Shown here piece after piece: positions 3,429-44,539 of a stretch of DNA of 51,240 bases (positions are counted from its first letter, which is position 1; every line of letters begins with the position of its first letter). The position numbers and the translations under genes were made by a program. Origin of the DNA: Nemertoderma westbladi (taxonomy: Eukaryota > Animalia > Xenacoelomorpha); the NCBI GenBank assembly GCA_032718475.1, contig JAUCBJ010007306.1, positions 1 to 51,240 on the forward strand, read 5' to 3'. Under the pieces are notes generated by a model that did not search any database, was not told where the DNA came from, and saw only the letters and a program-made list of their open reading frames with translations.

Positions 3429-3635
3429 GCGCAGTTTCCTCGCCTACACTTTTTTGTGTAATTCTAAATAAGCTTATCTTGAAACTTTGTGAGTCTAAAG
3501 CTAGGCTGAAATATTGGTTCCCACTTCTTTGGTGTATTAGTGTATGCAGATGACATTATTCTCCTTTGTCCTTCATTGATAGGGTTACAACGGATGGTGT
3601 CTATTTGTGAAGAGTTCGCGAAGAAACACAAGTTA

Positions 3636-6600: not shown

Positions 6601-7292
6601 ACGAATTGCCATAGAATCATAAAAATATACCTTTCACAATACACATACGGAGGAAATAAGTCTTAGATCCTCTAAAAACACCGATACAGTAATAATACGG
6701 TCTCTTACACTTATTAAATCAACTACAGAGTATTTTAATGTAAAAGATAATAAAAATAACGGGGCAATTCAGCAAAGGCTTTTACAGGAATTTATTATTC
6801 GTTTATGCATTCTAGTTAATTAATTGATATAATTAACGACATAATTATGTAAATAAAAATTGTTAAATGAAACAAATCTTTGTTTCGGTTTATAATTGAC
6901 AATAGCACACCCTCACAATCACTTCAAATTGAGAGTTAAAGTGATTGACATTTTGTTAATGAACTACGCTTTTGTAAGGCATTGGCAAATTCCAACAAAT
7001 TCCGATGGCGTCAAACATCTTCAAACAACTTCCAACAGTTTCAGACAATTTCAAACAGCTTCAGACAACTTCAGATAGCTTCCAACAACATCCAACAGAA
7101 ATTTCAAACACTTTCAGACGGATTTCAGACAGATTCAGATGGGCTCCAACAGACTAAACTTGTTGGAAATATTTTCTCCAACAGAATCAAACAGTACTAA
7201 ATCTCCGTAGGTTAGCATTGTGCTTGTTTGAAGCTGTCGGAGTGTGTTGGATCCGATCGGATCCGATGGCACTCTGTTGGTGAGCGGGACTG
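3636..7292. mobile_element. Non-autonomous DNA transposon, Tc1/mariner-type ends (CAGT...ACTG, TA TSD)
   Basis: The TIR CAGTCC(A/C)GCTCACCAACAGAGTGCCATCGGATCCGATC is present at both ends, with TA at 3634-35 and 7293-94. Excision restores the LINE reading frame. Subterminal TTCAGACA/TTCAAACA repeats; no transposase ORF seen. Confidence 0.85.
5565..6786 (-). mobile_element. Solo LTR of an E1-related BEL/Pao subfamily, TSD GGAAT
   Basis: Reverse-complement homolog of 25988-27158 (TGTTCGCGCTTTCAGACC...GGCTTTTACA). GGAAT flanks it at 5560-64 and 6787-91. Confidence 0.93.
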
Positions 7293-17430: not shown

Positions 17431-18164
17431 CCCCACAATCCACCCTAAACTAAAGTAGCATCATTGAGTCTTCACAACACTCTACCATATCCTCACCAAC
17501 AGCAACTCATTCAAGCAGACAAAACGTCACAAGTTATCCAACTACCAGCTCAGATGCGTATATGACCATATTCGTCCGAGGTTTGCCTTCTAATACTTCA
17601 TCACTATCTCTTTCCACACTATGCTACATGCAAAACGGATATCGCCCGCTAAACGTCTGGGTTCAAGGAAACAAAGGTATGCCCAAAACAGCGAAGGTAA
17701 CAATCAATAGATCATATTATAACACTTTTATATAAAGAGATAAGTGGTCTGGTAACCCCCCTGTTGTCAGCATCTGGAATGATAGACCATTGTACACCTA
17801 TTACAGAACAAGGACCAACTTTCATAACAACTCCATACCAAATACAGCTGCTCACTCCATGTATCACTGTATGTATTGTAGTGTGTATGTATTTAAATTG
17901 ATACACAAATTCGAACAGAACAATCTTCATCGCAATCCACAATGCACAGACCATCCTTAAATATAAAAGCTGTAAAACAATAGACCTGAGCAAGTTTACA
18001 CCAACAACCAATAGAAATTAAAATTCAACAACTAAGTTCATGACATTCAACTGCAAAGGATTTGAGAAATATGAACTATATATATGGAACTATTCTCACG
18101 AAGTATATACCCAATATCCTACTCCTGCAAGAGCACTGGCTAAGAGTGCGAGAAGCTGAATTAC
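17430..18164 (+). mobile_element. LINE D fragment 1: ORF1 remnant and start of APE endonuclease
   Basis: TIFVRGLPSN (~17566), FMTFNCKGF (~18037) and ILLLQEHWL (~18115) match APE motifs I and II plus an upstream ORF1-like piece. The frame continues at 25855. Confidence 0.75.
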
Positions 18165-18729
18165 TGATAAGTCCAGTAGTATACCGCCCGCCTACTGGAT
18201 CCTAGTAACGAAGTACCTTACTGTAGAATCCAGCAGTGTATACGGGCTCATACAGTATCTGACAAGAAATCCCAGTCCAGGGTGTCTAAATAAACAGATA
18301 CTAAGTACACTACTGGCGAGGAACGGAGCCTGATGTCTATTCTAATACTTGGGCGAATCAAATGCCTGGGCTAACTAGACAATCAGGATGCCCAGCCTCT
18401 AATCGGTGAGGCAGATGTACAGTCTGTAGACTGTACATCCATGGAGAACAAACTCACAGGAAAACAATCCCCACGTAGCGAATCCTAACTATCGCTAATG
18501 GACCGAAAATACTGTAAACTTGCCGCGGTGTGATTTATATGGGTATAATACGAGCTAGCGGGTCAACAGTACTAGCGTAATACAATGCTGCCGACAGGAA
18601 ATTAGCAGTCAAAAGGGGTGCCCTGTGTCAGAGTAAAACAAATAGCAAATATCTCCTCAAATAATAATAACTTACTTGTAAATCAGTAGCTTAGATCTCA
18701 AGACGCGTGTGTGTTGTGTTGACTAAACA
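18165..18729 (-). repeat. Truncated 3' LTR remnant of E2
   Basis: Diverged direct copy of 23806-24387, fused directly to RT codons (PEKPGKV) with no PPT. Confidence 0.85.
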
Positions 18730-21700
18730 CACCTTGCCAGGTTTTTCCGGATGTCATACAAAGTGATGTGGCAGATAATATGTCTGATCCGTTGTTACCT
18801 CAGGGTTTGTCATCCTGATCGTGTATCCCTTTTGGAGATACGTCTGAAGATGCGCGTTGTATTGCATATGGGGCGTCTCATCACGCAACAGCCGCTGCCG
18901 TATCGACTTAAGTCGTTTCATGGCAAGCGGGTAGTTGTTGACGAGCTTAGGTTGTCTATAGTGCCACAATATCCCAACTTTGTAGTGGCCCTTCGCAGTC
19001 TGGCGAATGGTATCCTTCATAATCTTTAATGACCATTTTTGCTGTTCTGATATAGCAGTCTCATAACTACCTGGTTCTGCTGAGTCCTGTTCCAACCACT
19101 TGATGGTTTTCTCGGTCAGCAGTCTGCCAAGCGCTGCTTGCACTGCGCCACGTCAATGTGGCTGGTAGGCTCGCAAGCCTTCTGGTGTCACTAGTCAGCA
19201 TCGAAACGTCGTGAGGCGGTTCGACAACCTTTTGATCTGTTGGTAGGCTCGCAAGCTTCCAAGATCAGTGACCAGTGTCGAAGCGTTGTAGATGGGGTCA
19301 ACAAACTCGGAATCCATCGGTAGGCTCGCAAGCCTTCCAAGATCATCGTTCGTCGAGACATCCACAGCATCATCCCTTTGTTCTTCGCCGGTCGATACAA
19401 CCTGTTCCGCTGCAAGTAGCTGTAAGTTAGAGGTCTGTGTGGTCTCGTCCAAGTCTGTTACATCGGTTCTATTGCGATGTAAGTCTGTCATGGTACTCTC
19501 AGTACAGTGGGGCCACAGGAATGTAAGGGAGAATTGGCTAACGTAGTAGTTAATAGACTACACGTGCTTAAGACGTTGTCCTCCTGGTCACTTATCTCTA
19601 GTGAACGCACAGGCGCTCTCGTATACCAACCTATGGTAGTTCTACAAGCATAAGGGTTGCCCGCTGTTACCATAGATGGGCGTGTCTCACATACTTGATG
19701 CAAGTTAAACTGGTCTGTCCCAATCAACATCGCGATTGAGCGATAGTTAACTGGAAATTCCGGTATTCCAAGATGTCGGAAATACTTACGGTCTTCCGGA
19801 GATTGTTCTGGCACAGGACCAAGCAAGTTACTAAAGTCCTTGATGGCAGCAAATGTCAGGTTTCTTACCGGAAGTAATGAGCGTTCCTCTCTGCTATGCT
19901 CCGCTTTGGAAAGAAGAGTATCTAGGGTCAGTTTGACCCTCGTAACAGGTATCGCTCTCTTACCATGCATGCTACTCACAGTATGCTGAGCAGCCTTACC
20001 TTGGCTCATGTCAGTAACTACGTCAGGCACTTGTTCGTCAACGTAGCTTTGTAATGATGCAGAGTCCAGGATAGTGTATATACGCTTGCTCCCTCGGGTT
20101 CCGGTGATTTTGATAGGAATCACGCTAAAACCCTTTAGCAGATTCTGAATAAGGAGTGTTACAGATGGCTGTTCCTCCTCCCCCGCATGCACGTAAAATG
20201 TTTTGTCCTCCAAATCGTCTTCGTCCGACAAACCTGAAACAAACAAACGACAAACCACATAGTCCGTGTAGAAAGTACGGACTTCACGCGGCGTGCGCTC
20301 TTTATAAAGCGCATCGCATCTTGCCGCTTTATCAGGGTATTCTCACTGAAAACGCTTAGTCAGAGTGTAACTAGTAGTGTGGAGCAACGCGTCATGGTTG
20401 CATCCACACAGAGGACATGTGACATCACTCGGACAATCCTTCCGGACATGCCCAGGCATGGTACATCTCCAGCAAGAGTCCAACAGGCGGATCTGGAGTC
20501 TTCTCTCCTCTACTCCTAGATCCTTAAATGTGCGACATCCATGTATCTTGTGTCCACCGTATCTTCCACCGTTCCGCTCACAAAATTGACATCCAACAAA
20601 ATCGGCTGGCATCTGCTGCCATGGCTGCTTGGTGACAATAGGCATCAGAACCTTGGAGGTATCCATTGGGGTGGCATAGGTTACGGCTTTCGCGTTTGTC
20701 AGAAATTGTTTGGTCCGATTCAGCACAGCGATCGTAATCCCTTCTGCCGCTATATGATGGTCCGTATAGATAGACCGCGTCTCCACTACGGCCTCTCGTG
20801 AGATCAATTGGTGGACGTCAGTCAGCTTTAATAGTCCGCCAGCCTCTTCGCTCTGGCACTCTATCCGACCCCATTCTCGGCGCAACCGATGCTGGAGTCT
20901 GCCGATGATCCAAATTAGAACTGTTGGTGCGTTGGCGTATTCGAGTTGACCGATGGACCGCAAAGTCCCTATAGCTTTTTCAATCTCATAGAAGATCAAT
21001 GGGTTTGGAGATTGGTCCGCCTCTACAGAGGTCTTCTATAATGGATTTAGCCATGGCGACATTACCGCCGTATATGGAAAATAGATGGTCGTACGCCAGC
21101 TCGAAAGCATTTGGAACACCTATGAAGGTCTCCGCTAACCTCTTCGGCTCACCTGATAGTACTTGAAGCAAGTAATTAAACTTCTCCGCTGAGGTGAAGG
21201 CACACATAGCGATCTGGGACTCCACATAGTCTACCAGCGTACGCCAGTTTTTTGCGTTGCCAGAGAACTTCGGCGGTTGTTGTGCCGGTAATCAGAGTCT
21301 GGCTGCAAATTTAGCGATCTCGTTAATCAGATCTAACTGTCCACATCCTTGTCCGGCAATAGCGTTTGGTCGTTCCTGTCATTCGTCGATACGGATCAAA
21401 GTTAATGGGATCTTCTCCTCGAGGATTCGGGGTTTGCTGTGCTTCCGGCTCTCTATAAGGTGGTCTCTGTGGTCGAGGTTGTTCTAATTCCACGCTGGTT
21501 TGTGATCGATCCGACGGCGGAGCTTCGAGCCGCTCCTCGATTTGAGCCAATCGGTCTGCTACAGGTCGCATTATCTCAGTGAGTTGGATGGCGCTAATCA
21601 TCTCCGCTAGTTGCAAAATGGGCTTCTGTACGGGTGTTTCTCGTGGAGGGTTGTCAATGTAAGGGTTCATCGATCTTTCCTCCCGCTTATATTCGCCTGC

Positions 21701-23072: not shown

Positions 23073-23805
23073 GTCTGTATTATATACATCGAATATGGGT
23101 AATAAATGTCAAAATGTCAAAATGTCAAAACTTACCTCGGTATATATATACTATATACACCCTAACCGGTACAAATAAAATCAAAAGGTATATAATTAAA
23201 ATATAATAATTCAGCCTACCGGCTAAATCTGTACAAATAAGTGTATAGCGGTATACGCTACCAAAATATAGATCAACAAGTGTCTAGGGGCAAAAATGTC
23301 TAGGGGAAAATATGTACCAACAAACACATAAATTAGACAGTAGAACCCACAAATTTTGAGTAATACTGTGCTCTAAGTATAAACGACACGAGTCATAAAA
23401 CTTACGTTCCTTTGATCTTCTAGTCATACAGATCCCCAGATACAACAAACGGTTCCGTTTCCAGCATCGTGGACGAATCATTGACCTCCCAAACTTGCTA
23501 AAAACGACCTAATCCTTCGAGGCGGTCCAGAAATGAGTCCTTGAGTACTGAAAAATCGAAGGTGAGAGTTTTACGGACTACTCTACGAAACATTTTCCTA
23601 GGTACCGATACAAATTGGTCTTTAAACCTTGCGTACCTTTTCAAGTACCGAAAAAGGTAACACCGCACACACACGGCCTAAGACAAAATAATTACAAACT
23701 AACTAGCTATTTATAGCTAGCCAAATACAAAATAACTTATTTAAATATAAAATAATTAACTTATGTAGAGCGCACATTGACCTAAATTATGTACGTATCT
23801 CCTAC

Positions 23806-25854
23806 TGATAAGTCCAGTAGTATACCGCCTACCGGATCCTAGTAACGAAGTCCTTACACCCTTACACGAGTCCTTACTGTAGAATCCAGCAGTGTATATG
23901 GGCTTGTACAGTATCTGACAAGAAATCCCAGTCCAGGGCGTCTAAATAAACAGATACTAAGTACACAAACTACTACTGGCGAGGAATGGAGCCTGATGTC
24001 TATTCTAATACTTGGCCGAATCAAATGCCTGGGCTAACTAGACAAACAGGATGCCCAGCCTCTAACCAGTGACGCAGATGTACAGTCTACAGATACAGAC
24101 CAAACTCACGGGAAAACAATCCCTGCGTAGTGAATCCTAACTATCGCTAATGGACCTCAAATACTGTAAACTTGCCGTGGTGTGATTTATATGGGTATAA
24201 TATGAGCTAGTCCAATCAATACTCACATGGTACTAGAGTAAAACAATACTGCCGACAGGAAAATTGCAGTCAAAAGGGGTACCCTGTGACAGAGTAAGAC
24301 AAATACCAAATATCTCCTCAAATAATAATAACTTACTTGTAAATCAGTAGCTTAGATCTCAAGCGTGTGTGTGTTACGAGTAAAACAATTTTGGTGTATC
24401 GCCGTTATACTAGGTTTTGGTGATTTTTAACAAAATAACAACACCGGGCGCTAGCTACTTGAATAAGCTTGTTGCACGCTGTAGGCATAATACTTACAAA
24501 TAACTGACGTCAAAAGGGCTCCCTCCTCCTTTATTCACAACTCAACCAGGCAATTACGTTGTAAGTAACTATGCCTGTGATCGGCACTGATACCAGATTC
24601 TGATTATGAGATAAGGAAATAGGTGTTAATTTACTACCGTACGAATAGCTGATCTGGTATGTAATTTTGATTCTAGAATTTTGTTACTGCAGTAAATACC
24701 TTTCAGTATGTGGCAAGGGCGTGGTCGATAGTTAGTAAACCTCCTTTAGCAAAAAGTGTGCCGGTAGCAGAAAGCTGCCTCTTGCCTGATCAAATACTTT
24801 GGAATCTGACAGGTCAGTCAAACTATAAGGCCTACAGAGCTAACCGGTACTGTAGGTCAGTACTGCAAATCACCAAATTATAGAGCGTGCTATTTGCACC
24901 TAAGTGTACTTGCGTGTACTGACGAACAGCAACAGCTCACACCTGTAGGAGATACACGTTGACCCGGGTTTTTCCTGTCTGTATCTGAGGTATTTAATCC
25001 TAAATTTTACGGAATCCCAGGACGTCGTCACACTTCACCCTGATCTAAAGGTCTTACGGCGGGCAAGGGCGTCAAACAAAGTCTTACCTTCCTCTGATGT
25101 GGGCGTTTTTAGGCAGTGAGGCATACTTCCAAATGGGTGTGGGCGAAGATAATGTGGGCTCTCTTATGCATCGTGGACATCCCTCCCCCTTGCATTGCTG
25201 AGGCCTAACGGTCTAGGCAGCCATTCCCCGAAGCGTTTGGCTGTCTCAAGATAGATACCTCAAAACTACATGTCTGAGTTTGCAGTATATTTTAACGTAA
25301 ATAAAATAAAACGTAAAAAATAACAAAGACTTGTCAAATTAAACTAACTTTGCAAAATAACAAAGCGAATTAAACTGAAATAGACTAATAACTATTAGCA
25401 ATTAAGACTAAAGACTGAGAATAAGGTAAGTGATAACCGAACTACAAACGGCACCTTATATAGCAAATCTTAAGCATGGAATTCACTAGAACATTCTACT
25501 ACATTCTACGAGCGCACATTGGAGCAATAAATTATCAAGTGCCCTACGATTGGCCCAACTCATCATTCCACGTGTTGTACGCGCCCCATTGGCTTATCTA
25601 ACTTAATGAAACCGAAAATATAATACAGCAAAATACAAATTTACCGACCTATATTCGAACCCCTGACCTAATTAGAATGTAACCCGCGCCTTAACCTACT
25701 CGACCACTGTGCCAATAGAATCCCAAGTCAAATTATAACTAATGTAGGTGATATGCAAATTACAACATACTACAAATCAAGGCAAATACGTCGGATTTTG
25801 AAAGTTTTTTACGTAGTACTGTAAATATCTACTTAACAGTGAAATAATCCCACA
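23806..25854 (-). repeat. 5' LTR of E2 (~2.05 kb)
   Basis: The left end is shared with the 3' LTR remnant. The right end is defined by the TG terminus and the ATTAC TSD. It may include secondary insertions. Confidence 0.75.
25643..25713 (-). ncRNA. Degenerate tRNA-derived sequence (Pol III A/B boxes) inside the E2 LTR
   Basis: Minus strand reads GGCACAG-TGGTCGAGTAGG-TTAAGGCG...GGGGTTCGAATA; stems are incomplete. Confidence 0.5.
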
Positions 25855-25987
25855 ATTACTTTTCATCAGACAACAACATATTCCAAGTGAGTACACCTGT
25901 TCAACTTACACCTTAGCCCAAGGTATGCTTGAAATTAAACTTAGAATACGTGGTGAAGGATGTACAGCTATTCTTATTAAAAACATC
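25855..25987 (+). mobile_element. LINE D fragment 2 (APE endonuclease), between E2 and E1
   Basis: Reads LLFIRQQHIPSEYTCSTYTLAQGMLEIKLRIRGEGCTAILIKNI, in frame with both flanking fragments. Confidence 0.85.
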
Positions 25988-27158
25988 TGTAAAAGCTTTT
26001 GCGTCATTAACCGGTTATTTTCCCTTAAAGTACTCTGTAGTTGGTTTGCCAGGCATAAAAAGGCCGTGTCCTTGCTGTACTGGTGTTTTAGAGGACATAA
26101 AAGTCATTTCTTATGTATTTGTACTGTATTTGTACTTTAGAGGACATAATCCGCAATCTCGTGACGCGATAAGCTAGATACTCTTGAAAACAGTGTCGCT
26201 ACCATGACGACGGCTAACAGCTGATATTGCCACGTCGACGTTTCTTTGTTTCTTTGTTCTCTCGTTGTTCGGTTGACCAATCAGAGCGTTTGTTGTCTCT
26301 GTGTTGGAGGTGTATACAGAGGCTCAGTAGTTCAGTGTTATGTTTTTGCCCAGAGCCTAAGAACCGGCTTTTGGCACCTCCGTGTTTTCAGTTTTTAGTC
26401 TTACACTAGTAGGCTTAATTATAAGGACATATATCCGTTATCATAACATACCATACCTAATCAAACAACCTGTGCATACTTTTATATTGTTATACTGCTA
26501 TTTACTGTCAGTTCTTCATAATATGGTTGATGAATTATTATATTTGGAATAACGATAAATAACCCCGAAAACCCAATATTCTTGATATACCGAAGGTAAG
26601 AGAGAAAGGTTACATATAACGATTGTGACTTATGTTAAAGTGGTTTGAAGTGAATCTAATGTTATTTGATAGACCCTACATGATTCGGTCTGTGTTCCTT
26701 TTATATGTGACTAAAATCAGTGAAGATCGGCAGATTAGTGTGCAGTATTGTGCAGCATTGTGTATTAGTGAGACTGATAACGAAGCATTTCCTAAAGAAT
26801 GCGCCATATATGTGAATTGTAACTAAGCCATATCGTTGTGAGTAGTTTAAGTCATAACTCTGTTTATATAGATAGAGCGCCACGTCCTAAAGGAACTGTT
26901 AATATTTCCCGAAGGTGAATAATATTGTCAGAGATTATATAATACTGTCAGTCGAATAATACATTAGGCTTACCTAGCAATAAGATTGAGCCGTCGAACC
27001 CAATCTCCCGGGTATATCCAGCGGGTGAATGATCGCGCACAGATTGGTTTCGACTAGTGTAGTGAATCAAATACTTGTCATAGGCTAAAGGCGAATTATT
27101 ATCTAGAAGACATCCTAATTTGGCGGGTTAAACTGCCAAAGGTCTGAAAGCGCGAACA
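25988..27158 (+). repeat. E1 5' LTR
   Basis: Matches 42121-43291; the only difference I found is T26691 vs C42824. Confidence 0.98.
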
Positions 27159-27170
27159 ATAACGGATATA
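27159..27170 (+). promoter_or_regulatory. PBS position of E1: non-tRNA, complementary to its own LTR at 26430-26441
   Basis: ATAACGGATATA immediately after the LTR is the reverse complement of TATATCCGTTAT in the LTR. No TGG start. Function is inferred. Confidence 0.6.
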
Positions 27171-27523
27171 GCTTCTTTATTGCAGTAAGCAATAAAGTTG
27201 AAAGTACCGGTCAACCGGTAAACCTGAACGGTACATCTGTAGGTCAGTAGGCCCAACTGCCAGAACCGGTACTGCCGTAGGTCCGTAGGTCCAACTGCCA
27301 GAACCGGTACTTCTGTAGGTCCGTAGGCCGAACTGTCCTAACCGGTACTTCCCGTATAAGTACATTAGTATTATTCGATTTGATTGTTGCATACTGGTAG
27401 GCTGTTTAAGAGATTAGGGACTGTACACCCCTTGTTTCTTTTGGAGCTTACTTATTTCTGTCAGTTTTATTTGTTTGTAGGCCAGTATTGAACAGAAGGC
27501 GTGTAAGCCTGATCAGATAGTAC

Positions 27524-28097
27524 AGACAATTTGTAGGCTGGGCTGTTGTCTGATTGCTGTTAAGTCCGAACGGATTGCAGTGTGTGTAGATCACCTGTCC
27601 GATAAAGAACGGTTAGGAAGTAGGGGCAGCCAAAGCTGTAAGGTAAACCCCCAACTAAAGAATAAGTCGTACTACTGGGTTAGAACGCATACTACCTAAT
27701 CATTTCGGAGTCTGCATGTCCTGTAGTTTATTTAGGCTTGAGAGTAGTCTGCCATCGTTTAGTCTGTACTTTGTTTGTGTAGTCTGTACAGGTAGAGTAT
27801 AATATTTATTTAGATAATTTGTAGGCTGGATAGTTGTCTGGCTGTTATTAGGTCTGAACGGATTGCAGTGTGTGTAGAGCCCCTGTCCGATAAAGAACGG
27901 TTAGGAAGTAGGGGCAGCCAAAGCTGTAAGGTAAACCCCCATCTAAAGAATAAGTCGTACTACTGGGTTAGAACGCATACTACCTAATCATTTCGGAGTC
28001 TGCATGTCCTGTAGTTTATTTAGGCTTGATAGTAGTCTGTCAGTATTTGGTCTGCATTTTGTTTGAGTGGTTTGTACGCGTAGCGTAATATTTATTA
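27524..28097. repeat. 288-bp tandem duplication in the E1 5' leader
   Basis: GATAAAGAACGGTTAGG occurs at 27601 and 27889; the core is nearly identical between copies. Confidence 0.92.
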
Positions 28098-28156
28098 TTC
28101 AGAGTTTATGCGATTATTCGCAACATTCATTCCCCAAGTTTGTTCCTACAATAATT

Positions 28157-29358
28157 GTGGCTGGCCACGAGAAAAGGGACCTTATGTCGCAAAACCTGAT
28201 TCTGAGATAATCGCGTTTAAAGTTTCCCTCTAATTTTTGAACAAATTTAATTGGATTATCAATTTAGAAATGTATAAAGCGATGAGGGAAATTCAAATTG
28301 GTTCTGATATTCAATATACCTAGGAAATAACTAATTACAGGAAGCAATATAAGATGTTGCAGTATTGTATATCCCACTGTTTTAGGTTTTTCATGTCTGA
28401 ATTTAGTACTGTAATAAAATTGTACTAATATGTAGGGTAGGTACACTGTAGGCCTACATTTATTTTTTAAATGCAATACTGCAATATGGCTGGCTGTCAT
28501 TTTGTTAATTTCTGTTCGTTAGTTCTGAATATTTGTAAGCACCTACTGCGATGCGATATTAAGTGACACTGAAGAATGAATACCAGACTGTAATATTCAA
28601 AAGTCTACCGCTAGGGGGCGATAATGTTCTAGAATGTAAATTGCTTGTCATTTTGTTAATTCCTGTCCGTTTCTTTTGAAATTTTGTAGACACCTTCTAC
28701 AATATGAAATTATACTTGGGAATGAATCCTAGACTGTAATAGTCAAATGTCTGCCGCTAGGGGGCGATAATGTTCTAGAATGTAAATTGCCTGTCATTTT
28801 GTTAATTCCTGTCCGTTTGTCTTGAAATTTTATAGAGACTTTCTACAATATGGGTGGGACAAGGTGGACATCTACAACACTCCCAATAATGAATTCAATA
28901 TACGAATAATTTTAAATTTTGTAAAAAAAAATTTTTTTTGAAAAAAAAATTTATTGTTTTGAAAAAAATTTAAATTAAAAAAAAAATTTTGGTTAGCCTA
29001 CATGCTTTTTTTTAAACTTTGCAAAAAAATTTTTTTAATAGTTCATTAACAATATTAATAGTTTCAAAGTGTCAAAAGTTGTATAAATAGACGAATAACA
29101 TTGAGCTGCCTAACTATATACAGTAGTAAGAATTGCTATGATATTATTAATATTTTCCATTTTTTTTAAATAACAAAATTATTTTGAAAAGAGCTACCGG
29201 ATTCACCTTCACATAAATCGCTATAACTTTTTTTTGGAAATAGATATTGAGACCCCGTTTTTTTTGTTAAAATCTCTGGAAAATTCTGCATCTCATAGGC
29301 CTAGTAACTCAAAATCGACCTCCGGTGACATAAGGTCCCTTTTCTCGTGGCCAGCCAC
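28157..29358. mobile_element. Non-autonomous DNA transposon with 32-bp perfect TIR and AATT TSD (Sola1-like), nested in the E1 leader
   Basis: GTGGCTGGCCACGAGAAAAGGGACCTTATGTC at 28157-28188 and its reverse complement at 29327-29358; AATT at 28153-56 and 29359-62; internal ~146-bp repeat. The Sola1 assignment rests on the 4-bp AWWT TSD only. Confidence 0.85.
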
Positions 29359-30237
29359 AATTGTGTTTGTTATACATACCGCTATAGTTAAATTAACCCC
29401 GGTACTACACGGGCTGCTTGGCGTAGGTAAAGACTGGTGATTTTGTGCACCGGTCACTCCAGCAGATGCCGTGGTTCTTTTAGCTGTTCAAGTATATTTA
29501 ACTACTGATTATATGTTGTACAAGTACTCGTACCTAATTTAGGGTTTAGTGTACAGTGCTTTCCGAAAGTAATTAGTGTAGACATTATATTTGTGTTGTA
29601 AAGTGGTTGATAGGCACGTTCGATTAGCTCTATTAACTTCTAGGTAGGAACACTCCGTGATACATAACGTAGTACCTATAGCGATACGGCTATAGGTCGT
29701 CAGGCGGTGGTATTTTCCTATCTGGACAACGCAGTGTATTTGCTACTACTTATTATTTTCAAATACCGTAGTACCCTGTCCGTTGTAATAACCAGATTCT
29801 AACCCTTTGTTAGGCTGGTTTGTAGACATCTTGTAAAATTACCCTGAAAATTCGTATTTTGTGTTTTTGTAAATTTTTGTGTTTATTTAGAGATTGTAAT
29901 CTCACCCGAATTGTACGTAATTTGTAGTATTAAGTAACTTAGGTAAATTAGCATTATTTGTTAGTGTCCTATAAGTAACACTTCACTGAAAGCGCACCGC
30001 TTTGTGTAGTGATTACTCCCCAGAAATAATAACATTTATTTCAACATTGACAAAACCCATTAAACGGGTATATATATATTATAAATCAACTCAAACGATT
30101 TATAAATAGTAGGCCTGCCATACAACAATTAGGTCTCAATATCAGTTGGACTACTGCTTAAATAACGGCAATAAAGTAAGTTAAGGTAACCAAGTAACCC
30201 TTAAAATTCAGAAATTCAGTTATTTAAAATAATTGAT

Positions 30238-30610
30238 ATACCGGTATTTACAATAGGCTTATTATATTTATTTCCATAAATTTTAGGTTGAAATCATACC
30301 GGTATTCTGTAATTAATTCTAGTTTGTAATTATACTTATATATATACACTATAAGTGTAAACTGCATACCGGTATTTACGATAGGCCTATTATCTTTATT
30401 TCTATAAATTTAGGCTGAAATTATACCGGTACTTGTAATTAATTCTAGTCCAGAATTATATATACTACAAACTGTAAGCTGTATACCGGTATTCCCGATA
30501 GGCCTATTATATATTTATATATATTTGTGCTAAAATTATATACCGGTTTCTGTGAAAAACCTAGTCTGTAATAATACTTATATATACAATAAGCATACCG
30601 GTATTCTAAT
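30238..30610. repeat. Degenerate tandem repeat with a TACCGGT core, upstream of E1 gag
   Basis: About 7 ATACCGGT(A) cores at ~55-70-bp spacing, alternating two unit types. Confidence 0.75.
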
Positions 30611-30739
30611 ATATTATATATATCACGCTACACTGAGTAGCAGTATCGGTAATTAATTACTAGGCTAGCAGTTAACTCTGAATTACTAGACTTGCTTAAA
30701 CTGTAATATAGCAGTAGGCATTCAACTGTGCAAACCAAC

Positions 30740-33700
30740 ATGTCTGACACTAAACAGAACCTGTCAGACAGTTTATTAGATGTAACTATCTGCGACTCAG
30801 ACAGAGGTGTAGAACCGTCTAGTCCTAAGTTCAGTTCACCTCCCACTGTGAGGAAGGTCATCCCTCCAGTAGTAATAACAGAACCTAGGCTGGTCCAACA
30901 TCGTAGGTCTATCATAGGCACTCGAGCTCAGGTCAAGCGGGACCAAGAAGCAGCGGAACAGCAACAACCCGCGAGCCAAGAACTTATTTCTCAGCGGCCC
31001 GACAGCTCCAGTAGTGAAGATACTGTAGAACTGACACCCGAGCGCGGAGCAAGGATGACGGATGCGGTTTATTCGGATCCCCTTCTCATCCTTCCTGCAG
31101 CCGTACTCACTAGGCTATTGATCGCGGTGGAAGAACACCAGATCGATTGGGCGAGAAGTAAGCGCTCAACTAAAGATAGTTATGCGGGATACACAAAGGA
31201 AGAACTGAAATCTATGGTCGAGTCGCAATGGAACTTCCCCGGACCCGGACTCCCGTTCGATTTATCAGAAGCTGCCTGGGAAGACATACACCGGATGGGA
31301 GTAGCCAAGGAAACCATCGATCCAGCTGTGTGGAAGAGGTCCGCAGCCGGATACGCACAGAGATTCTTCAGCTCTATGGAGAGAGTAGAAAAACAACTGT
31401 TTCAACAACCTAAAGGACCTCAAGAGCAGGGACAACTGCTTTATCAAGTTAGAGAAAGAATTCTGCGAATCAGGCTAATATTATCAGCCTTTGAAGAGGC
31501 TTCTAAAAGAAGACAAGACACGTCGTTGCAAGTTGCCGTAAAGACTTGGTTTCAACGGGTGAGTCGCCAGGTTCAAGGAACAGCTCAGTGGAAAGCTCAG
31601 CTGGAGGAGCGCTCAACCCATGGAGAATCAACGGACGCTACTTTTTCCCAAGTGGAAAGTGAAGCGACGGCAGAGAAACCGCATAAGAGGGATGCCATTG
31701 ACATCTATCTGTCAGACTATCAGCGTTTTTTGGGAGATGAAGAGTTGAGGAGAAGGCTAGATGGACTTAGCCCTAATAGTGAAGGAGCCCAGCGTGTGTT
31801 GGATGCAATTGATGTGGATAGAAAGACAGCGGCAGTGGCAGCAGCAGTGGCAGAGGCAGAAGCGGAAAGAAAAGCGGCAGCAGCAGTGGCAGAGGCAGAA
31901 GCGGAAAGAAAAGCGGCAGCAGCAGTGGCAGCGGCAGAAGCTGAAAGAAAAGCGGCAGTGGCAGCAGCAGTGGCAGCGGCAGAAGCGGAAAGAAAAGCGG
32001 CAGTGGCAGTGGCAGTGGCAGAGGCCGAAGCGGAAAGGAAAGCGGCATCGGCAGTGGCAGAGGCCGAAGCGGAAAGAAAAGCGGCACTGGCAACAGCAGA
32101 GGCAGTGGCAGAAGCAGAACGGAGGGCATCTGAAGAGGCAACCCAACTAGAGTTGGAAAATCTTCAAGAGAGGCAAGACAACTTCAATAAACAGTTAACA
32201 GCTAGTAATATGCAGATGATGAGTCGATCTACTCCCAAAAGACAGGGGTATACATCATCTGAGGAAGGCGATACTACCGATACTGAAGGCAAAGGAAATA
32301 GATCTCGTCTAAGCAGACGTAAAAGAACATTCCATCGTCAGAAATTGCCTGATTTGCCTCCAGCTGTTAGAAGACAACTAAATAACACCAACTTAGGTAG
32401 TACAGAGCCCACAGACCAAATAATTCAAATAGAAAGACTCCCTACTATAGTAGATGAGCCTGAAATAATTAGGCCTGTTCTTGAAATCACCCCTTCGGTG
32501 ATAGACACACCTGTGCTCCCTGAAGCTACCTCTAAATTCCCTCTGCATAGCACTAAGCTACCTGTGCCCAGTAGAACTGCCCAGGAGACAGTTCAGGTCC
32601 TGGACCCCGAGCGAAATATTCATGATTTGTCGCCCGTTGTCCCTCGTCCGCCCGCTACAACGTTGGCGACTCCCGCTTTGGCGGTCGAATGGGTGGACGA
32701 GAGACGGCGGGGGATGGATCTCCTGCTCGGGCAGATGCAGGAGACTGTTCAGCAATTCAAGGGCACAGTAAGGGAAAGTAGGCTAGAGTTGCAAGAAGTG
32801 CAGCAAAGTATCGCGCTAGAACGCGATAAATTAGTAAATACTCAAAGGGGTATACCACCACCCTCGGTAACAATGTGTCAACCTGTTAGGTCTGAAGTAT
32901 CTCATGCGCAAGGTGTGGAGCCTACACGCATATATACTGCTAGCGATGTAGAAACTCCTATAGTGAACCCTATTAAGGGTAATTATAGACCTGTTGATAA
33001 TGACATTCCCTATAGACCTGATCATAATCCGAGAAATTTATATACCGATAACTCGATATTAAATAACACGATGGCCCAAGAAAGTTTTACGCGTCAAATG
33101 GCTAGAACCGAAGCCCGGCAAGCGGTGAAGGTGGGAGAGATCGTCAAGTTCAATGGAGATGAGATGAAATGGTTACCTTTTAATGAATATTACAAAGATA
33201 ACATACAGAACTCTGTACTATCTAATGGAGAGAAACTTAGATTCCTCATCGAGTGCTTGGAAGGATCTCCCAAATTAATGGCGTTAAAGTTTATTGGACA
33301 TCCAGACGGATTAAGACAAGTTTGGGATACACTAAACATCAGGTATGGTAATAGGAATAACATAGCTGGGTTTTTGTATGCAAAGTTGGTAGCGCCCCGA
33401 AGGTTTATTAGCAACGGGATTATAGAGTTTTCCGATGAAATTCAGGAGATCTGCAGACAATTAGATTGGCTAGGTAAGTCTCATGAGTATCAGAGTGCTA
33501 TGGTTATTAGAGCAGTGGCTTCTACTTTACCGAAGGGTGGAGTAGGTACACGCTGGGACAAAAAGGTGTTATACATGATGGAACAACAACAACGAAACCC
33601 TACCATGACCGATCTCATGACATTCTTGGATGGCGAAGTGAAATTACAGCTCATAAAGCAGTCCAGAGAGAAGACATCGGAAAACAAGGTAAGTGAGAAA

Positions 33701-36700
33701 CCCGTCTCCAGAAGAAAGGTAACACCAGTGTGTTATACCGACGACGGCGAAAGCCAAGCTTCCCAAGGGGAAGATAGCGGGAAAGACACTGAAAGATCTT
33801 ATTATGTCAATAAAACACCTAACGAACAGGGAAGTAAATTTAAGTCTCGATCCAATGACAAGAGAGAACAGGTAAGAAAAAGTCCTCCTACGTCTCCCAA
33901 GAGAATTCAGGTGAGAAAGCCCGAAGAAAGAACGAGAGTGCACAATGTCACCCAAAATAAGGTAAGTAACATCAAACCGAAATGTGCGCTATGTGACGGG
34001 ACCCACCGTTTGAATATGTGTGATGAATTTCTGAAGAAGTCATTAACGGAGAGACGCGAAGTCATGTGGGATAAGCGGTTATGTTATAATTGCCTCAGAC
34101 AAGGACACCAACGGCGAACCTGTTACTCTGACATAAGGTGTGCAAAGTGTGGTGCGAAACATCATATCTTGTTGCACGCTGAATTCGAGCGAAATAGTCT
34201 GAATCAGGTAAGTGATTCCGAACTACATGTCCAATTCAGTGATGTGAACGACACTGATCAATCTGAGATGGAAGGATTCTATACGGACGAGTTCTCCGAC
34301 GAAAACGAATCCTGTTACATGATAAATACCGCAGTGTATCGAGCACTCATATATGAAAAAGATACGGACAGCGACCTCACTCTAACTACTTCGGATCAAC
34401 AACAATCGTGGAAAGCACCAACTTCCGATGTAGGAATCCGAGAATTTCCTGTAGTCCAGTTACGGGTCCATGGACCTCAGAAGAGCTATATAGTGAACGC
34501 CCTCCTGGACTCCGGTAGTACAGGAACATTCATCGACAAAGAGCTAGCCGAAGACATATTTGCTGGACAACCCAAGTTCCGAACTAAGCTAAACATGTCC
34601 GGCATTATGCAAGTTTGGAAATCTACATTAACAGCGGATTATTATGTAGGCGCGTTGTCCACCCCCCAGGACGAACTAGGAGAACATAGCATAAGGTGAG
34701 TGAAAATGGTGGCTATAAAGAACTTCGCTACTACTCAAGCAGACCTTTATAATTGGGACGAGGATGAGAGCATCCAACATCTTAAGATACCTCGATTCCA
34801 AACTGATTATCCTGGAGTGCAAATACTCATCGGCCAAAACGCGCATGAGGCGCTCGAGACATTGGAGAAACGGCCTGCTCAACCGCAGCCACTACAGACC
34901 TATGCGGTAAGAACTAGAGTAGGTTGGTACTTTACTGGCCCTTCCCGTAGAACACTCAGAGAAAGACTACCGCAAGAGCACGTCTGCCAGGTGAGTGAAT
35001 GGGAAGATGATACCAGTGAGGGAGACGATTTAACTGAGGGAACTCCATACTCCTCAGATAACGACGACGTTCACCAGCTTTTTGATGAGGAGAATACCAT
35101 CGATCTCCTTAAGGAAAACGAGGCTTGGCAAAACCAAGTGAACTTATGTCAACTTCTTTATCCATCTGAACGAGAAGCTTATAACGACGAGCTAAATGAC
35201 GTCATTGAGCGTTGTAATGCCAAGACTCGAGATGAACATGCCGTACGATTCTTTACGCAAGAGGCGGTAGAGCCCAATTCCTACGATAAAGCCTTATCGG
35301 TGGAAGAGGAAAGGGCCAAGCAGATCCAAGAGACAACTACACGTTTCCTCAAAGATCAAGGTAGGTATGAAGTCGGTCTACCTTTCTGCAAGAGAGAACC
35401 GAAGTTCATCAATAACAGACCCTTGGCGGAAAAAAGAATCGCGCAACTCCATCGACGCCTTACGGCTAATTCTTCAGCTAAAGAAATGTATCAAACACAG
35501 CTGGAGAAATTTATTAGTAAGGGATACGCGGAGAGAGTACCGGAAGAAACACCTGTGACTGAAAGAACGTATTACTTAACTCACCATTACGTTCCTAAAC
35601 CCGGTAAACCACATGAAGTGAGAGTAGTGTTTGATGGCTCCGCTCTTTACATGGGTCAATCCCTTAACTCTGAATTGTTACCCGGACCCAACTTACTTCA
35701 ATCTTTGTTGGGAATTCTTTTAAGATTGAGACAATATTCGATTGCTTTCGCCTCCGATATAGAAGGCATGTTCTTACAAGTCAAAGTGTTAGATAGGGAT
35801 CGAGATAGTCTACGATTTCTGTGGTGGCCCGAAGGAGACCTCAACCAGAAACCGGTGGAGTACTGGATGACCATCCAGGCCTTTGGGATAATCTCAAGCC
35901 CTTCCAACGCCTGTTCGGTAGTGTGTACCACTGCAGAGGACAACCGAGAGGCATTCTCTAAGGAAGTGATCGACAACATCAAGCGAGACATATACATGGA
36001 CGACAATCTGAAGTCCCTCCCATCAGTTGAGGAAGCCATTGAGGTTGCTAAAGGAACGGTAGAGTGCTTAAAAAGAGGTGGGTTTCGATTAACGAAATTC
36101 ACCAGCAACTCCCGTGAGTTTCTGGAGTCGATCCCTGCGGAAGATCGAGGGGCGAAAGATCTAGATTTGATCAAAGATGATCTGCCAGAAACCAAGACAC
36201 TCGGCTTGAAATGGGACACAGAGCGAGATATCCTGTTTTTCCAGCTAAAACAGCGAGATAATCCAGTTCGAACCAAACGGATTTGCTTAAGTATACTGAG
36301 CACTTATTTCGATCCATTGGGATTTATTAGCCCAGTTATATTGATTGCTCGTAGTTTGGTACAACAAATGTGGCTTGATAACCACTCATGGGACGATCCA
36401 CTTAAGGGAGAATTATTAAAGAAGTGGATGAAATGGGAAGATTCTCTGCCGGCTATCGAGGATTTTATAATTTCCCGTTCATATTTTGGTCATGTTCTCC
36501 CTACGTATTCCTATCAACTCCATGTGTTTGGAGACGCCAGCGATATGGGAATAGGTATAGTAGCCTATCTAAGAGTGGAAACTCCAGATGGAATCAAATT
36601 CGCCTTGGTTACTTCTAAGGCATTAATCAACAACAAGTTGAAAGTTCTCGAGCGGAGTTAAAAGCGGCTCTATACGCTTCAGCCATCGGCCGGAATGTAA

Positions 36701-38877
36701 CAGAACAGATTGACTATCCATTAGAGAAAACTGTCTATTGGACCGACGCTTTACTCGTGTTAGAGTATATAACCAATGAAGTCTGTCAGTTCAGCGTCTT
36801 CGTTACCAACAGAGTAGCCATCATACTTAGTCGCACGACGATGGACCAATGGAGACATTGCCCCGGAACGATTAATCCAGCAGACATCGCTTCCCGAGGA
36901 GCGACTCCAAAGGAATTGGTAAATACTCCCGAATGGTTAGGTGGACCCGACTTTCTCTACAGAGAAGAAGAAGAATGGCCTCCGCATCTCACAACAGCAG
37001 AGATCAGACAGGCCAAGGGAGCGGAGAAAGTTAAACCCAAAACTCGAGCGAGTAAATCGAAGTTGTTTAAACCTGCTGTTGATCTATCTGTATTATTTAC
37101 TCCCGGAGAGGATGCTTTGGATCAGAAACCCACCGCCACGACTAAAGAAGTCTTGGAAATCCGTGACAAGGATTGGAAATCTGGAATACCAGATATCGCG
37201 CAAGGACTCTCACCCCTCTTGCAGAGAGCGATACGTCACTACAGTTCCTGGAATCGGCTCTGTAAAGCCGTCACCTATTTAAAACGATGTTTTCATCATC
37301 GTTACTCCGGGACAAAGACCAATAGTGATGATGCTCCATCAACATCTGCACGAGTCCATGTTGTTAAAGATCTTCCTAAATACAAGATATCCGACAGGTT
37401 TCTAAAGGAGAAGATCAGTTACCAGGAGCATGATGAAACCAACAAACAGATGCTGAGACTCCTACAATGCTATGAGGATTCCGATAAGTATTTCCTGTTG
37501 TTAAGAAATCCGCAGATGCGCTTAAGGGATCGCTTCTCTAGTACCATGATAGATGGGTTAATACGTGTTGGAGGCAGGCTCACCAACGCCCCATTATCCT
37601 TTGATACTAAGTTTCCCATACTCATTAGAAATCTTGACATACAAATCAAGATGATTGTAGATGTTCATAGCAAACTGTACCATGCTGGTAGAGAACGAGT
37701 TCTGAGCGAAATTCGAACTCGGTACTATTTTTATAAACCCTGTAGGGCTCTGAACCAAGTTCTTAGGAACTGCATACCCTGTAGGAAAGCATTCAGTAGG
37801 CCTTTAACACAGCGAGAGGCAGAATTACCTAGGGAAAGAGTAAGCTTCTATGAACCACCCTTTACTAATACCGGTGTGGATTTATTTGGCCCTATTGAAG
37901 TATATCGTGCCCGGACTATAGTCAAGAGATGGTGTGTCATCTTCGTTTGTATGACTTGTAGAGCTATCCATCTCGATATGGTAAACGATCTATCCACCAA
38001 CAGCTTCGTGTTGAGTTTACGACGACAGATCGCTCGTTTCGGAACCAGTAACACGATGAGATCGGATAAGGGAACGAACTTCATTGGCGCCAACAACGAA
38101 ATTCAAGCTTACGTAAAGGACTGGAACAAAAGACAGGTGGACGATCAGCTAAAGATAACAGCGTCTAGCTGGACCTTCAACGCCGCCGACGCCCCTTGGT
38201 GGGGAGGAAGTTGGGAGAGATTGATTAGGAGCGTGAAGACTGCGTTCCACTTTATTGTACCTTGTCGCGCTTATCTCACCGACGAACTATTGCGGACGTT
38301 AATGGAGGAAATCGCCGCCTATCTCAACGAAAGACCGCTTATGCCAGTCTCTTCAAGTCCTGATTCCCTGGAAGCGCTAACACCCGCGCACTTTCTACTG
38401 AAGAAACCCGTAGCCATGCTCCCACGATCGGAGATCACAGACGGAGACGAGTACTGCCGTCGAACCTGGCAACTTATGCAGTTGCTATCCCGTCGTTTCG
38501 CTGACCATTTCGGGAAACATTACCTGCCCACTCTACAACTTCGAACTAAGTGGTTTGCGCAGCAAGAAAACGTCAGCGCTGGAGACATGGTGCTTATTGT
38601 GGACCCCGATCTCCCACGTAAGCGATGGCAAACAGGACGTATCATCGAGACTCATATCTCGAGCGATGGTTTGGTGCGATCAGTAGAACTCGTCGTCATG
38701 CGGCGTAACTTTAAGAAACCAGGGATAGTCTTTGAGACTCAACAGCTCAACCGCCCAGTGGGTCGTTTATGTTTACTGGAAAGAGACAGAGAGCTCTCCG
38801 GAAACTATGGAAGGCAAGAAACTCTTCCCACGACCACTTCCCTAATCCAACCGACATCTAGGGACTCCCCAACTTAA
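30740..38877 (+). pseudogene. gag-pol: E1 gag-pol polyprotein (Gag, aspartic protease, RT, RNase H, integrase) with one in-frame TGA (34697-99) and one 1-nt deletion (~36647)
   Basis: ATG at 30740; DUF1759-like region; knuckles CALCDGTHRLNMC / CYNCLRQGHQRRTC / CAKCGAKHHILLH; protease LLDSGS; RT SDIEGMFLQV and YMDD; RNase H LHVFGDAS, (P)RAELKAA, WTDA; integrase HHCC, GVDLFGP, SDKGTNF, GGSWERLIRSVK. Confidence 0.95.
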
Positions 38878-40547
38878 TATCGTTCGGAGTGGGCGTGTGA
38901 CTCTATTATTTTATATTATTTTATTATTTTATATTTATGTATGTATTACTATGTAATTTTATTATAATCGTTTTATTTAATTTAGTAGAATATTATTTAG
39001 CGATTATTTAGTAGAATAGTGCAATATGTTCGTGTTTATTGCGTACGTAATTACTTATATTATATTTAGTGTGACGGTGAGAAACAAGTGTTTTTCTCTT
39101 TCCTTACTGTCCGTATTATATTATAAATACGTAACTACAGTAAGATGAAATGTCCGTACTTATTAAAGTACAATAAAGCCACTACTATATTCAAGTATTA
39201 TTGGTAGGCAGAGTATTAGGAATGCAAAGTTCAGATCCTCGTGTCTCGGCTAAACCAAGCTCTGGGTAGACCTTGGAAACGACTTGCCTCTTCACACTGA
39301 CATTGCTTCGTGCGATATTGCTCTCATACCGTATATTAAATAATACATATAGTAGCGTGATGTCCCTTTAACAGTAGCGTATAACGCAAAATAAATCTGT
39401 TAAACCCTTTGACCATCTGTAATTCTAGTCGATTAAGATATCGCGGCACCCACCGATATACTTGAAAGACAAATTTTAGAATCAGTGGTTAACGTCCCCA
39501 GACAAGTTCTGGAATAAATCGGTGCCCATCTCAAATATTAATTATTTAATATTTGCAAATCTAATAAATCAACTCTGTAAAATTCAGATCCTTCAACAAT
39601 TCTAGTCAATTAAGATATCGTAGCATTTACCGATATTCTTAAAAAGACAATTTTCATAGAATTAAGGATCTTGTGTCCCCAGACATGTTCTAGAATCAAA
39701 ATATGTCCATTTAATTATCAAATAATAAAATTTCAGGGAATAAATTTAAATTCATGCCTTTTAATGAATTTAATAAATTGCCATTTTTACGCAATTTATA
39801 ACATTCCCAAAATTCCATTAATTAATAGATCAAGGGAGCGGAGATTTATCTTATTATGCGTATGAGTGTGAGAAAGTCTCCCAAACATAGTCAATAGCCG
39901 ATAAAATTCATAAAGTCATGTATAAAACAGGACATTGACCATTAAAGAATTACTATTAAATAACATCCCAGATCTGTATGCATTGGAATTACCCTAATTC
40001 TACTGCTAGCTTTACATAATGTCACCATAGCAACAACCACGCTAGAATTAGAATTGAGTTAAAAGAACAATAGACAGCTTGTCCCATTGAATAGCATAGG
40101 GAATAAACAGTGCACTGCTAGTATCCAAGGATACATGATAATAACGTGACATTCTGGAAGGCACTGACTAACGGACAAGTGACCCGAGTGTGTGTAATTT
40201 GTGACAAGTTGTGTGTGTGGTATTTGTGAGTTTATAGGCGAATGTTACTACTAAGGTGTGTTTACAGTAGCGAGTCGCAATTGTGAAAGTAACCCTAACT
40301 CTCCAGTAAGAACCTGAGGTGTATCTATGCCTTTGGGACGGACAGTCGAGTGACTTGTGCCGGTTGTCGTTGTCGTTGTGCGGCTACGTCATTGGCGAAA
40401 GTACAGCGGCGACGACACATCGGCGCTGAGGATCTAGCACTGTCCGGGGGCTGATGGGGGTAGGCAGCGACGCTCGCTAGCCTAAATATAAACTCATTAT
40501 AATATTAATAAACTCATATATAGCAGATATGACGGAGTTGATAGAAA

Positions 40548-41657
40548 ATGGTCTTGGTATCAGGGAGCGATATACTCTACTTTCAAGCGTTTGTTGATAG
40601 CTTGATACGCGGTGATACTAGTCCAACTACTACGAAGGATGATGGTCGTTATATCGAACCTACGATTTCCTGGAAGTAACTTACGCGTGAATTGGACTAT
40701 GGAAAATTCACCGCTCGCTATACGCATCGTAATGGTACGTATGTGGACTTCTTAACTACTGGTCATCCTATCGATTTACACGATACAGACAATGTCGACA
40801 CCAAAAGGGAAATGGTACGATTGAAATATCCTACCCAGCGGAGGCGGAACGATAAACCGAGAATGGAACACGAGAATTCTATTCGAAACAGACTCGAAAG
40901 AGAAGACGTTGAGGAGCCGGATAAACGCAGCGACTTCAATGATTATCTGGAATTCCTGATAGAAACATATCTCAATATTGCCAGTCAACAAAATCTAGAA
41001 ACTCGATATCCTCAAGGTATACATCATGACCGCATGGTAGAACTCAAACGGCTCGATTCCCCTATGATGTATCTTATCGCCGATCGACCGCTACCTGTTG
41101 TACCGAATAGCTTCGAACGGATGGAGGAATATTGTAAGCTGGAGAAAGATCACTCGCGTTTCCCCTACAAGACGTACGTTTTTGGGTATTATTGCGATGA
41201 ATGCCCAAGACCCAACCAACAAACGGAAAGACATAAACATCCGCGGAGACGTTGCTTTAAACACGGTTTTACTCGCTATACTTACAGGAGTTTCGAGCGA
41301 AACTTGTTCAATGTATCACCTACGCTCGTTCGACTCAGACGATCCTTAAATAAACCAATGATCAGAGTTTCGGAATACTCGATCAGAGCTCCTCATTCCC
41401 TAGTGAGACCTCAGACTCTTGATCCTATTAGTATGACGGATCCTCCCGAGCTGTACTCACTGCTCAAAGATCTAGTGTTACCTGAACGATTAGTCGGTGG
41501 CACCCCAGTTGTGGGTTTCTTAGATATTAGCCCATCCTACCTAGCCGGATTGGGACGCGGACATTTAATATCGCCGTTTAACCCTTACCATCGTCCCGGC
41601 TTGACACGATATATTCTGTCACCAGAGTGGCGGAGAACGTTGTACCAAACGAGTTAA
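40548..41657 (+). CDS. E1 accessory ORF3 of unknown function (one internal TAA at 40677-79; open 40680-41657)
   Basis: A 321-codon open frame lies between integrase and the 3' LTR. An in-frame ATG in good Kozak context (GAAAATGG) is 48 codons upstream. No family recognised. Confidence 0.65.
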
Positions 41658-42110
41658 ACGCTATTCTACAAAGATCAGAAAGGAAACCTACAGATAAACG
41701 TAAGTTGTAGCATCAAGTCCAAGCGATAAACGAATTGTCTTTATCTCAGTTCGATTGTGAAATCCAGAATCTCTAAGAAGATATCGCACTTAGACAACCC
41801 CATTCTCTGCGAGAGTTTTTGGATGAACGTATCCAGCTACGAGCGGAGGAAAATCAGCTCGAGGAGAAGCATATCGAAATGGCGGATACCCCGACCATAA
41901 TCCTACACCTTCTGATGCAATCATATTGCACCCTTCACCCAGGATTTATAGCCCTCCTAGTAAAGTGGCTCCCCCCAAAGAGAAAAGGACTCTTGCTAGC
42001 CTCAAAAAACTGCGTAAACGCCGTCTGCGTAAGAAAGACTAACTGTTTAGAGTATTCTTATATTTTAGAAACCGTGATTTGTTATATTTTATAGACTTAA
42101 ATCCCATTTT

Positions 42111-42120
42111 CTGGGAGCGG
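42111..42120 (+). promoter_or_regulatory. Polypurine-tract position of E1
   Basis: CTGGGAGCGG directly precedes the TG of the 3' LTR. Confidence 0.6.
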
Positions 42121-44467: not shown

Positions 44468-44539
44468 GCCTATGTGGTGTAGTGGTTAGCATACCTGAAC
44501 GTTTATCGGGAGAAGCGGGTTCGATTCCCGCTGGTGGCG
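44468..44539 (+). ncRNA. tRNA-derived element (SINE head or tRNA pseudogene)
   Basis: A box TGGTGTAGTGG, B box GGTTCGATTCC, perfect T stem (GCGGG/CCCGC), paired D and anticodon stems. The acceptor stem is broken and the anticodon loop is non-canonical. A T6 run follows. Confidence 0.7.

Follow-up and report, generated by a model that had tools for sequence, protein, structure and literature searches.

The window analysed here, 51,240 nt of Nemertoderma westbladi DNA (GenBank assembly GCA_032718475.1, contig JAUCBJ010007306.1), carries two neighbouring LTR retrotransposons in opposite orientation, here called E2 and E1 (Table 1). E2 runs from 25854 to 18165 on the minus strand; its termini are TG..CA, and its target-site duplication (TSD) is the 5-bp ATTAC. 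E1 (25988–43291) is a very young element of 17.3 kb with a 3.5-kb leader containing tandem repeats. Despite its young LTRs, its pol bears an in-frame stop (34697–99) and a frame change ahead of the integrase, and an extra ORF of 325 aa downstream of pol (40680–41657, +) finds no match in Pfam or the ESM Atlas. The window also holds a third, decayed BEL/Pao fragment at about 420–3430 (+), with a DUF1759 domain at 1751–2482, for which the candidate LTR end gives a self-match of 6 nt only. A tRNA-Asn call (44468–44539, +) lies beside an uninterrupted 628-codon gamma-glutamyltranspeptidase frame (44842–46728, +).

Table 1. Features of E2 and E1 in the window, with the evidence on which each is placed.
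Feature	Position	Strand	Basis
E2 TSD ATTAC, left copy	18160..18164	.	matches right copy
E2 3' LTR remnant, last ~570 nt only, without complementary site	18165..18730	-	comparison with 5' LTR, 85% identical
E2 start of BEL/Pao pol, just upstream of RT	18757..19152	-	tblastn to E1 E=6e-22, plus 56 other loci
E2 protease-region frame	19491..20342	-	tblastn to E1 E=8e-15; no Pfam match
E2 Gag zinc-knuckle region	20346..21035	-	zf-CCHC E=0.014, below cut-off; 56 BEL/Pao subjects
E2 Gag DUF1759 domain, BEL/Pao marker	20989..21291	-	PF03564 E=4.4e-07, above cut-off
E2 primer-binding position GTAGGAGATAC, flush with 5' LTR end, no TGG	23795..23805	-	sequence inspection, shuffles
E2 5' LTR, 2,049 nt, TG..CA	23806..25854	-	TSD and empty-site contigs
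E2 candidate poly(A) signal AATAAA, LTR nt 1320, 410 nt downstream of site	24530..24535	-	motif, predicted
E2 AG directly past site, candidate splice acceptor with site as pyrimidine tract	24943..24944	-	predicted; candidate donors 25087 and 25057
E2 exact PBS complement GTATCTCCTAC, LTR nt 900–910, candidate self-primer	24945..24955	-	sequence match
E2 TATA box (LTR nt 393) and initiator-like A (LTR nt 424), predicted TSS 25431	25431..25462	-	sequence motif
E2 TSD ATTAC, right copy	25855..25859	.	matches left copy
E1 5' LTR, 1,171 nt	25988..27158	+	3' LTR 42121–43291, 99.9% identical; TSD ACATC
E1 complement of own PBS, LTR nt 443–454	26430..26441	+	sequence match
E1 primer-binding position, 12 nt, flush, no TGG	27159..27170	+	sequence match
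E1 BEL/Pao gag-pol, in-frame stop 34697–99, integrase in another frame	30707..38877	+	DUF1759, Peptidase_A17, Integrase_H2C2, DUF5641

A first-pass annotation of this DNA had assigned 24388–25854 to the LTR of E2. The ends of the element bear this out: in addition to the TSD and the TG..CA termini, contigs from three public sequencing runs of two samples (X1, X2 and X3) join 18165 directly to 25873 and represent the empty site of E2. In a contig of a fourth public run (X5), the match ends at 25855–56, the outer edge of the element. Filled and empty forms of the site (18165/25873) occur at like depth in X1, X2 and X3, which points either to an insertion that is polymorphic or to duplication of its flank. 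A deletion accounts for the short 3' LTR: it brought the beginning of the RT region up against the LTR near 18730 and removed RT, RNase H, integrase, PPT and the upstream part of the 3' LTR. E2 is a deleted and aged BEL/Pao retrotransposon, and a defective witness of the contiguous form of the proposed self-priming described below.

By their predicted proteins, E2 and E1 are BEL/Pao elements. E2 retains a DUF1759 domain above the cut-off, and its protease and pre-RT segments match E1 and BEL/Pao loci, while E1 encodes DUF1759, Peptidase_A17, Integrase_H2C2 and DUF5641; the LTRs are of the TG..CA type and flanked by a TSD. Membership of either element in the Tf1/sushi group was considered and rejected, as these are BEL/Pao domains and not those of the Ty3/gypsy (chromovirus) Pol lineage. 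With the RT–RNase H (RT-RH) region of E1, 261 relatives were found, at 32–46% identity among the matches listed (n=120); the named ones among these come from cnidarians, echinoderms, molluscs, fish and other animals. In a quick tree without named reference clades, E1 RT-RH forms a long branch (1.9) of unsure placement—E2, which has no RT, is not part of this tree.

The feature in question lies at the junction of the E2 5' LTR with the leader. TATCA closes the LTR at 23806 on the minus strand, and GTAGGAGATAC adjoins it without a gap. The first-pass annotation had pointed out that these 11 nt (23805→23795) lack a TGG and find their exact complement inside the LTR (24955→24945); both 11-mers are present, exact and flush, at these positions. 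The match is exactly 11 nt, with no extension possible, and the two partners are 1,139 nt apart. A flush match of at least 11 nt arises in 8 of 20,000 dinucleotide shuffles of the E2 LTR and in 3 of 4,000 trials of a second shuffle set, and only three of 5,045 internal 11-mers of E2 have a complement in the LTR, the primer-binding site (PBS) itself among them. A tRNA-type PBS, named in the annotation as a finding that would speak against self-priming, is not seen: TGG is absent from the 50 nt past the LTR in E2 as well as in E1.

E1 shows the same arrangement. Its match had been given as 11 nt and is corrected here to 12 nt, with the LTR end placed at 27158 (TSD ACATC); it is flush and is reached in 1 of 4,000 shuffles. 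Its PBS begins with AT, unlike the GT of E2. A solo E1-like LTR copy (5564–6786) bears two changes inside the 12-nt site, and a strong predicted AAG|GTAAG splice donor at LTR nt 609 of E1 (26596, +) also persists in the two diverged copies of E1-like LTRs, 5564–6786 and 43561–44242 (-). The two elements had been regarded as independent cases with unrelated LTRs. At the level of DNA sequence this stands, as blastn of one LTR against the other finds nothing beyond a weak 17/19-nt motif (E=0.066–0.61). This initiator-like motif lies at 26385–26403 (+) in E1 and at 25421–25403 (-) in E2 and may mark a core promoter shared by both LTRs. In origin, on the contrary, the self-complementarity of E1 and E2 is probably not independent, judged from their proteins: E1 is the top match for three of four E2 protein segments, at 25–34% identity.

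Transcription of E2 was expected to start near 24955, at the complementary site itself. This is not supported by the sequence. The upstream LTR contains a single instance of a canonical TATA box with an initiator at 31-nt spacing, from which +1 falls at 25431. This is 476 nt ahead of the site and renders a Tf1 geometry of E2 doubtful. With this predicted start, the primer would stem from inside R and not from the transcript's first 11 bases. The site is directly followed by AG|GT, and GTAAG donors are located 115 and 145 nt upstream, whereas E1 and the contiguous relatives do not bear an AG after the site. Read depth along the E2 LTR is uneven. A 54-nt stretch that includes both GTAAG donors (25039–25092) reaches 10–20 times the depth of its flanks in X1–X3—hence, this stretch is shared with a far more abundant repeat.

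A much broader basis is provided by relatives from metagenomes, for which we used the best 80 of 564 confirmed loci of a metagenome scan; these are short-read contigs, in which copies may be merged. A first blind inverted-repeat scan of loci without LTR ends gave mostly noise, and end-anchored tests were used instead. Where the LTR end is visible in both copies, the bases past the 5' LTR are mostly without TGG, and a complement of the PBS emerges once a GT–AG segment inside the LTR is removed. A blind scan recovered the same at ACA ends in many families. A fixed-rule test scored 24 relatives with a placed LTR end; of the remaining loci, 47 were left unscored (no LTR end, or too little LTR placeable) and six were family duplicates or partial. 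In 19 of these 24, with about half of the relatives' LTR ends placed only after the match had been noticed, the predicted exon junction creates a complement of 10–15 nt, with introns of 66–612 nt and an offset of 0–5. Predicted introns include nt 289–452 of the L002 3' LTR, nt 173–358 in L027 and nt 230–306 in L037. Three others (L076, L069 and L044) have a contiguous complement of 10–11 nt, that of L044 being weak taken alone (76 of 4,000 shuffles). By the same test, L022, which bears a tRNA-type site with TGG, and L068 have no complement. Outside the 24, visual inspection adds L050 (contiguous, 12 nt) and two junction cases, L031 and L032.

With shuffled leaders, 22 of 5,200 control trials reach 10 nt. 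When leaders and LTRs are cross-paired, 29 of 650 cases do so, and 24 of these fall within L002/L008/L079/L009 or L027/L064/L066/L041, families with a PBS in common. The 25 positive relatives have 18 distinct PBS 10-mers, and all 25 start with GT like that of E2, so the arrangement is alike while its letters differ. Where LTR ends derive from comparing the 5' and 3' repeats, 11 families of 13 have a complement, seven across a junction and four contiguous, L023 being scored via its twin L025 after adjustment of the L023 end. An A(A/T)TAAA motif follows the acceptor within 105 nt in 17 of the 19 junction relatives, which places the site in R. A scan of viral_contigs produced 93 pattern matches and no true relative. 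Extra long ORFs outside gag-pol are carried by, or lie beside, L027, L038, L056, L060 and L066.

A possible relation between the junction and contiguous forms is shown by L053 and L076, which are sisters in the quick RT-RH tree (99% support) and have an identical PBS. In the LTR of L053, the end of exon 1 is followed by a GT donor. The 3' LTR of L076 has the same end of exon 1 joined straight to exon 2, and its 5' LTR copy shows an AG acceptor at the exact point of this joint. This pair offers a route between both forms and is evidence, at the DNA level, for splicing of the intron and for the capacity of a spliced RNA to be copied into a contiguous site, with the reservation that short-read contigs may merge copies. 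Contiguous types occupy three places among the junction types in the same tree. For E2 and E1 themselves, a junction-made site was sought and rejected, with best matches of 6 nt and 0 nt, respectively, and predicted spliced forms of the E2 LTR show no complement longer than 7 nt in the leader. Contigs of the E2 family run across the site with no loose end there among the matches listed, and these include no intron-bearing copy. Intron loss in the own line of E2 is hence only inferred; by comparison with the relatives, E2 likely is the intron-less form of a widespread self-priming system.

In X1–X3, the E2 site has zero variants of at least 5% among 40 of 50 rows, while its flanks have about 15 variable positions per 90 nt; conservation of the site is suggestive and not significant (P about 0.13 for none in 11). 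For the slightly larger interval 24940–24956, no variant of at least 5% occurs in X1–X3 among the matches listed (post hoc P about 0.05). X5 has a single variant in the site, at 24946, which would give a G–U pair with an unchanged PBS. A high-depth X5 contig skips 24940–25068, including the site, and may belong to another family that shares part of the E2 LTR. Depth of the LTR in X5 is far above that of the internal region, and that of the site-bearing form, 109, is about twice the internal 30–57, although summed depths are a poor measure. In RNA folding of 1,250 nt of the aged E2 copy, the pair probability of site and PBS is 0; the first PBS bases pair with U5, and a predicted local U5/leader hairpin competes for the PBS. 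The fold model gives 0.69–0.82 for the corresponding pair in E1.

On the basis of sequence, E2 likely primes minus-strand DNA synthesis with LTR-derived RNA from an internal part of R and not with a tRNA; we put the probability of this reading at roughly 0.57. Transcription would start near LTR nt 424, which would leave the site within R and upstream of the poly(A) signal. The LTR-derived site might then pair with the PBS, either by folding back or, if supplied in trans, as part of a short LTR-only RNA or of a co-packaged RNA. A cut or trimming past its final AC—by RNase H, in analogy to Tf1—would leave a 3'-OH, from which the primer would be extended as minus-strand DNA through U5 and the remaining R. 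In most relatives, the site would arise only once the LTR intron has been spliced out. Reverse transcription of the spliced RNA would make the site a constant part of the LTR, without the intron, as it is in E2, E1 and four relatives. The intron could nevertheless be inherited, since splicing of one R copy suffices and the copy from which the LTR is regenerated may retain the intron.

Self-priming of E2 could also follow the exact Tf1 geometry, i.e., with a start at 24955, folding of the first 11 bases onto the PBS and an RNase H cut after base 11. We consider this unlikely. An AT-rich ATTAAAT does lie 43 nt upstream of the E2 site, but the canonical TATA box and initiator sit 476 nt upstream, and in L076 and L025 the TATA box likewise precedes the site, by about 124 and 167 nt, respectively. 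In intron-bearing relatives, this geometry would moreover mean an exon 1 of only 4–7 nt, and first exons of this size are rare. What speaks for it is the length of the match: 11 nt in E2 and 10–12 nt in most relatives, as for Tf1 in the available text of PMC7175516. Even less probable is that an LTR intron (donor 25087 or 25057, acceptor 24943), once excised, supplies its 3' tail as the primer, with 2 nt trimmed off. The AG|GT past the site, the upstream donors and the interval 24940–24956, with no variant of at least 5% listed in X1–X3, would fit this idea; yet an AG after a pyrimidine-rich 11-mer often arises by chance, E1 and the four contiguous relatives have none at this point, and an untrimmed tail would presumably overwrite the terminal CA. 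Priming from internal R, the exact Tf1 geometry and the intron tail are all forms of self-priming, which makes self-priming as such very probable.

Two further explanations dispense with self-priming. The pairing might be real but regulatory—e.g., masking of a splice site, sensing of splicing, dimerisation or packaging—with some host RNA acting as the primer, and in E2 a candidate 3' splice site does have the complementary site for its pyrimidine tract. A primer for LTR replication must, however, anneal beside the LTR end. A fixed host RNA would also not explain that 18 distinct PBS 10-mers each match their own LTR, and L022, the sole relative family with a TGG site, is one without a self-complement. 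We hence regard a regulatory role as improbable. That the match arose by chance, or is left over from a rearrangement as this copy decayed, would agree with the age of E2 (LTRs 85% identical), its deletion and the fold model, in which site and PBS stay unpaired. The comparative data largely refute this reading: E2 by itself gives a P of about 5e-4, E1 and 25 relatives show the arrangement again, and contigs of the family span the site; only a very small residual likelihood is left to it. Self-priming of E2, as proposed in the first-pass annotation, thus holds as the best explanation and is strengthened by the relatives. The elements are BEL/Pao and not Tf1/sushi, a start near 24955 is not supported by the sequence, and independence from E1 probably does not extend to origin.

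Going beyond E2, we tentatively propose, at somewhat less than even odds, that much of BEL/Pao derives its reverse-transcription primer from the RNA of its own LTR. Ancestrally, this would depend on splicing of an LTR intron by the host, possibly with a short polyadenylated LTR-only RNA acting in trans, such that the spliceosome gates replication; E2 and E1 would have escaped by retro-loss and carry a constitutive site in a very long R-U5. If true, tRNA-independent priming would reach a third LTR superfamily and be frequent in it, with primers taken from within R and in many families assembled by splicing, which would tie replication directly to the host spliceosome. BEL/Pao elements without a PBS, overlooked in tRNA-based annotation, would also be explained, and would lie beyond silencing by tRNA fragments. 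As the predicted junctions and 3' ends are exact, they are directly testable with RNA data.

Neither self-priming of BEL/Pao nor a splice-made primer was found in the literature searched, whose scope did not extend to subscription papers, Repbase/GyDB entries and supplements. The parts of PMC3286476, PMC13524379, PMC6934838, PMC3601003, PMC5443660, PMC2656454 and PMC8220671 that were available do not describe BEL/Pao self-priming, and by term look-up the available text of PMC3118150 mentions neither PBS nor primer and that of PMC554778 neither PBS nor tRNA. The ICTV profile of Belpaoviridae (PMC8742986) gives tRNA priming from an 18-nt PBS for tRNA-Arg or tRNA-Gly, LTRs of 0.2–1.2 kb and genomes of 4.2–10 kb. 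Taken together, E2 and E1 resemble this family in their Gag with DUF1759 and zinc knuckles, the Pao peptidase, the order PR-RT-RH-IN, the TG..CA LTRs and the 5-bp TSD. Unlike the profile, E2 has no tRNA-type PBS and an LTR of 2.05 kb, and E1 is 17.3 kb long without a TGG site. Both are therefore filed under BEL/Pao by their proteins, as a variant in priming.

Self-priming itself is known from other superfamilies. As far as the available text of PMC6317226 goes, it is described for the Tf1/sushi and Tcn1 groups of Ty3/gypsy and proposed for the TAR lineage (Houba, Osr-1) of plant Ty1/copia. The TAR lineage is like E2 in that self-priming is predicted from PBS–LTR complementarity outside Ty3/gypsy; it differs from the E2 group in consisting of plant copia elements, for which the same text mentions no intron. 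The closer parallel is found in Tf1/Tf2 of S. pombe, Tj1 and the Tf1/sushi and Tcn1 groups, which, in the available parts of PMC7175516, PMC4600332 and PMC6317226, have no tRNA PBS and bear about 11 nt beside the 5' LTR that are complementary to their own LTR-derived RNA. E2 shares with these a PBS complementary to its own LTR and no tRNA site, and would work like a Tf1/sushi element without being one. It differs in being BEL/Pao, in a site predicted to lie inside R and not at bases 1–11, and in the 1,139 nt that separate site and PBS; most of its relatives depart further from Tf1-type elements, as their site requires splicing.
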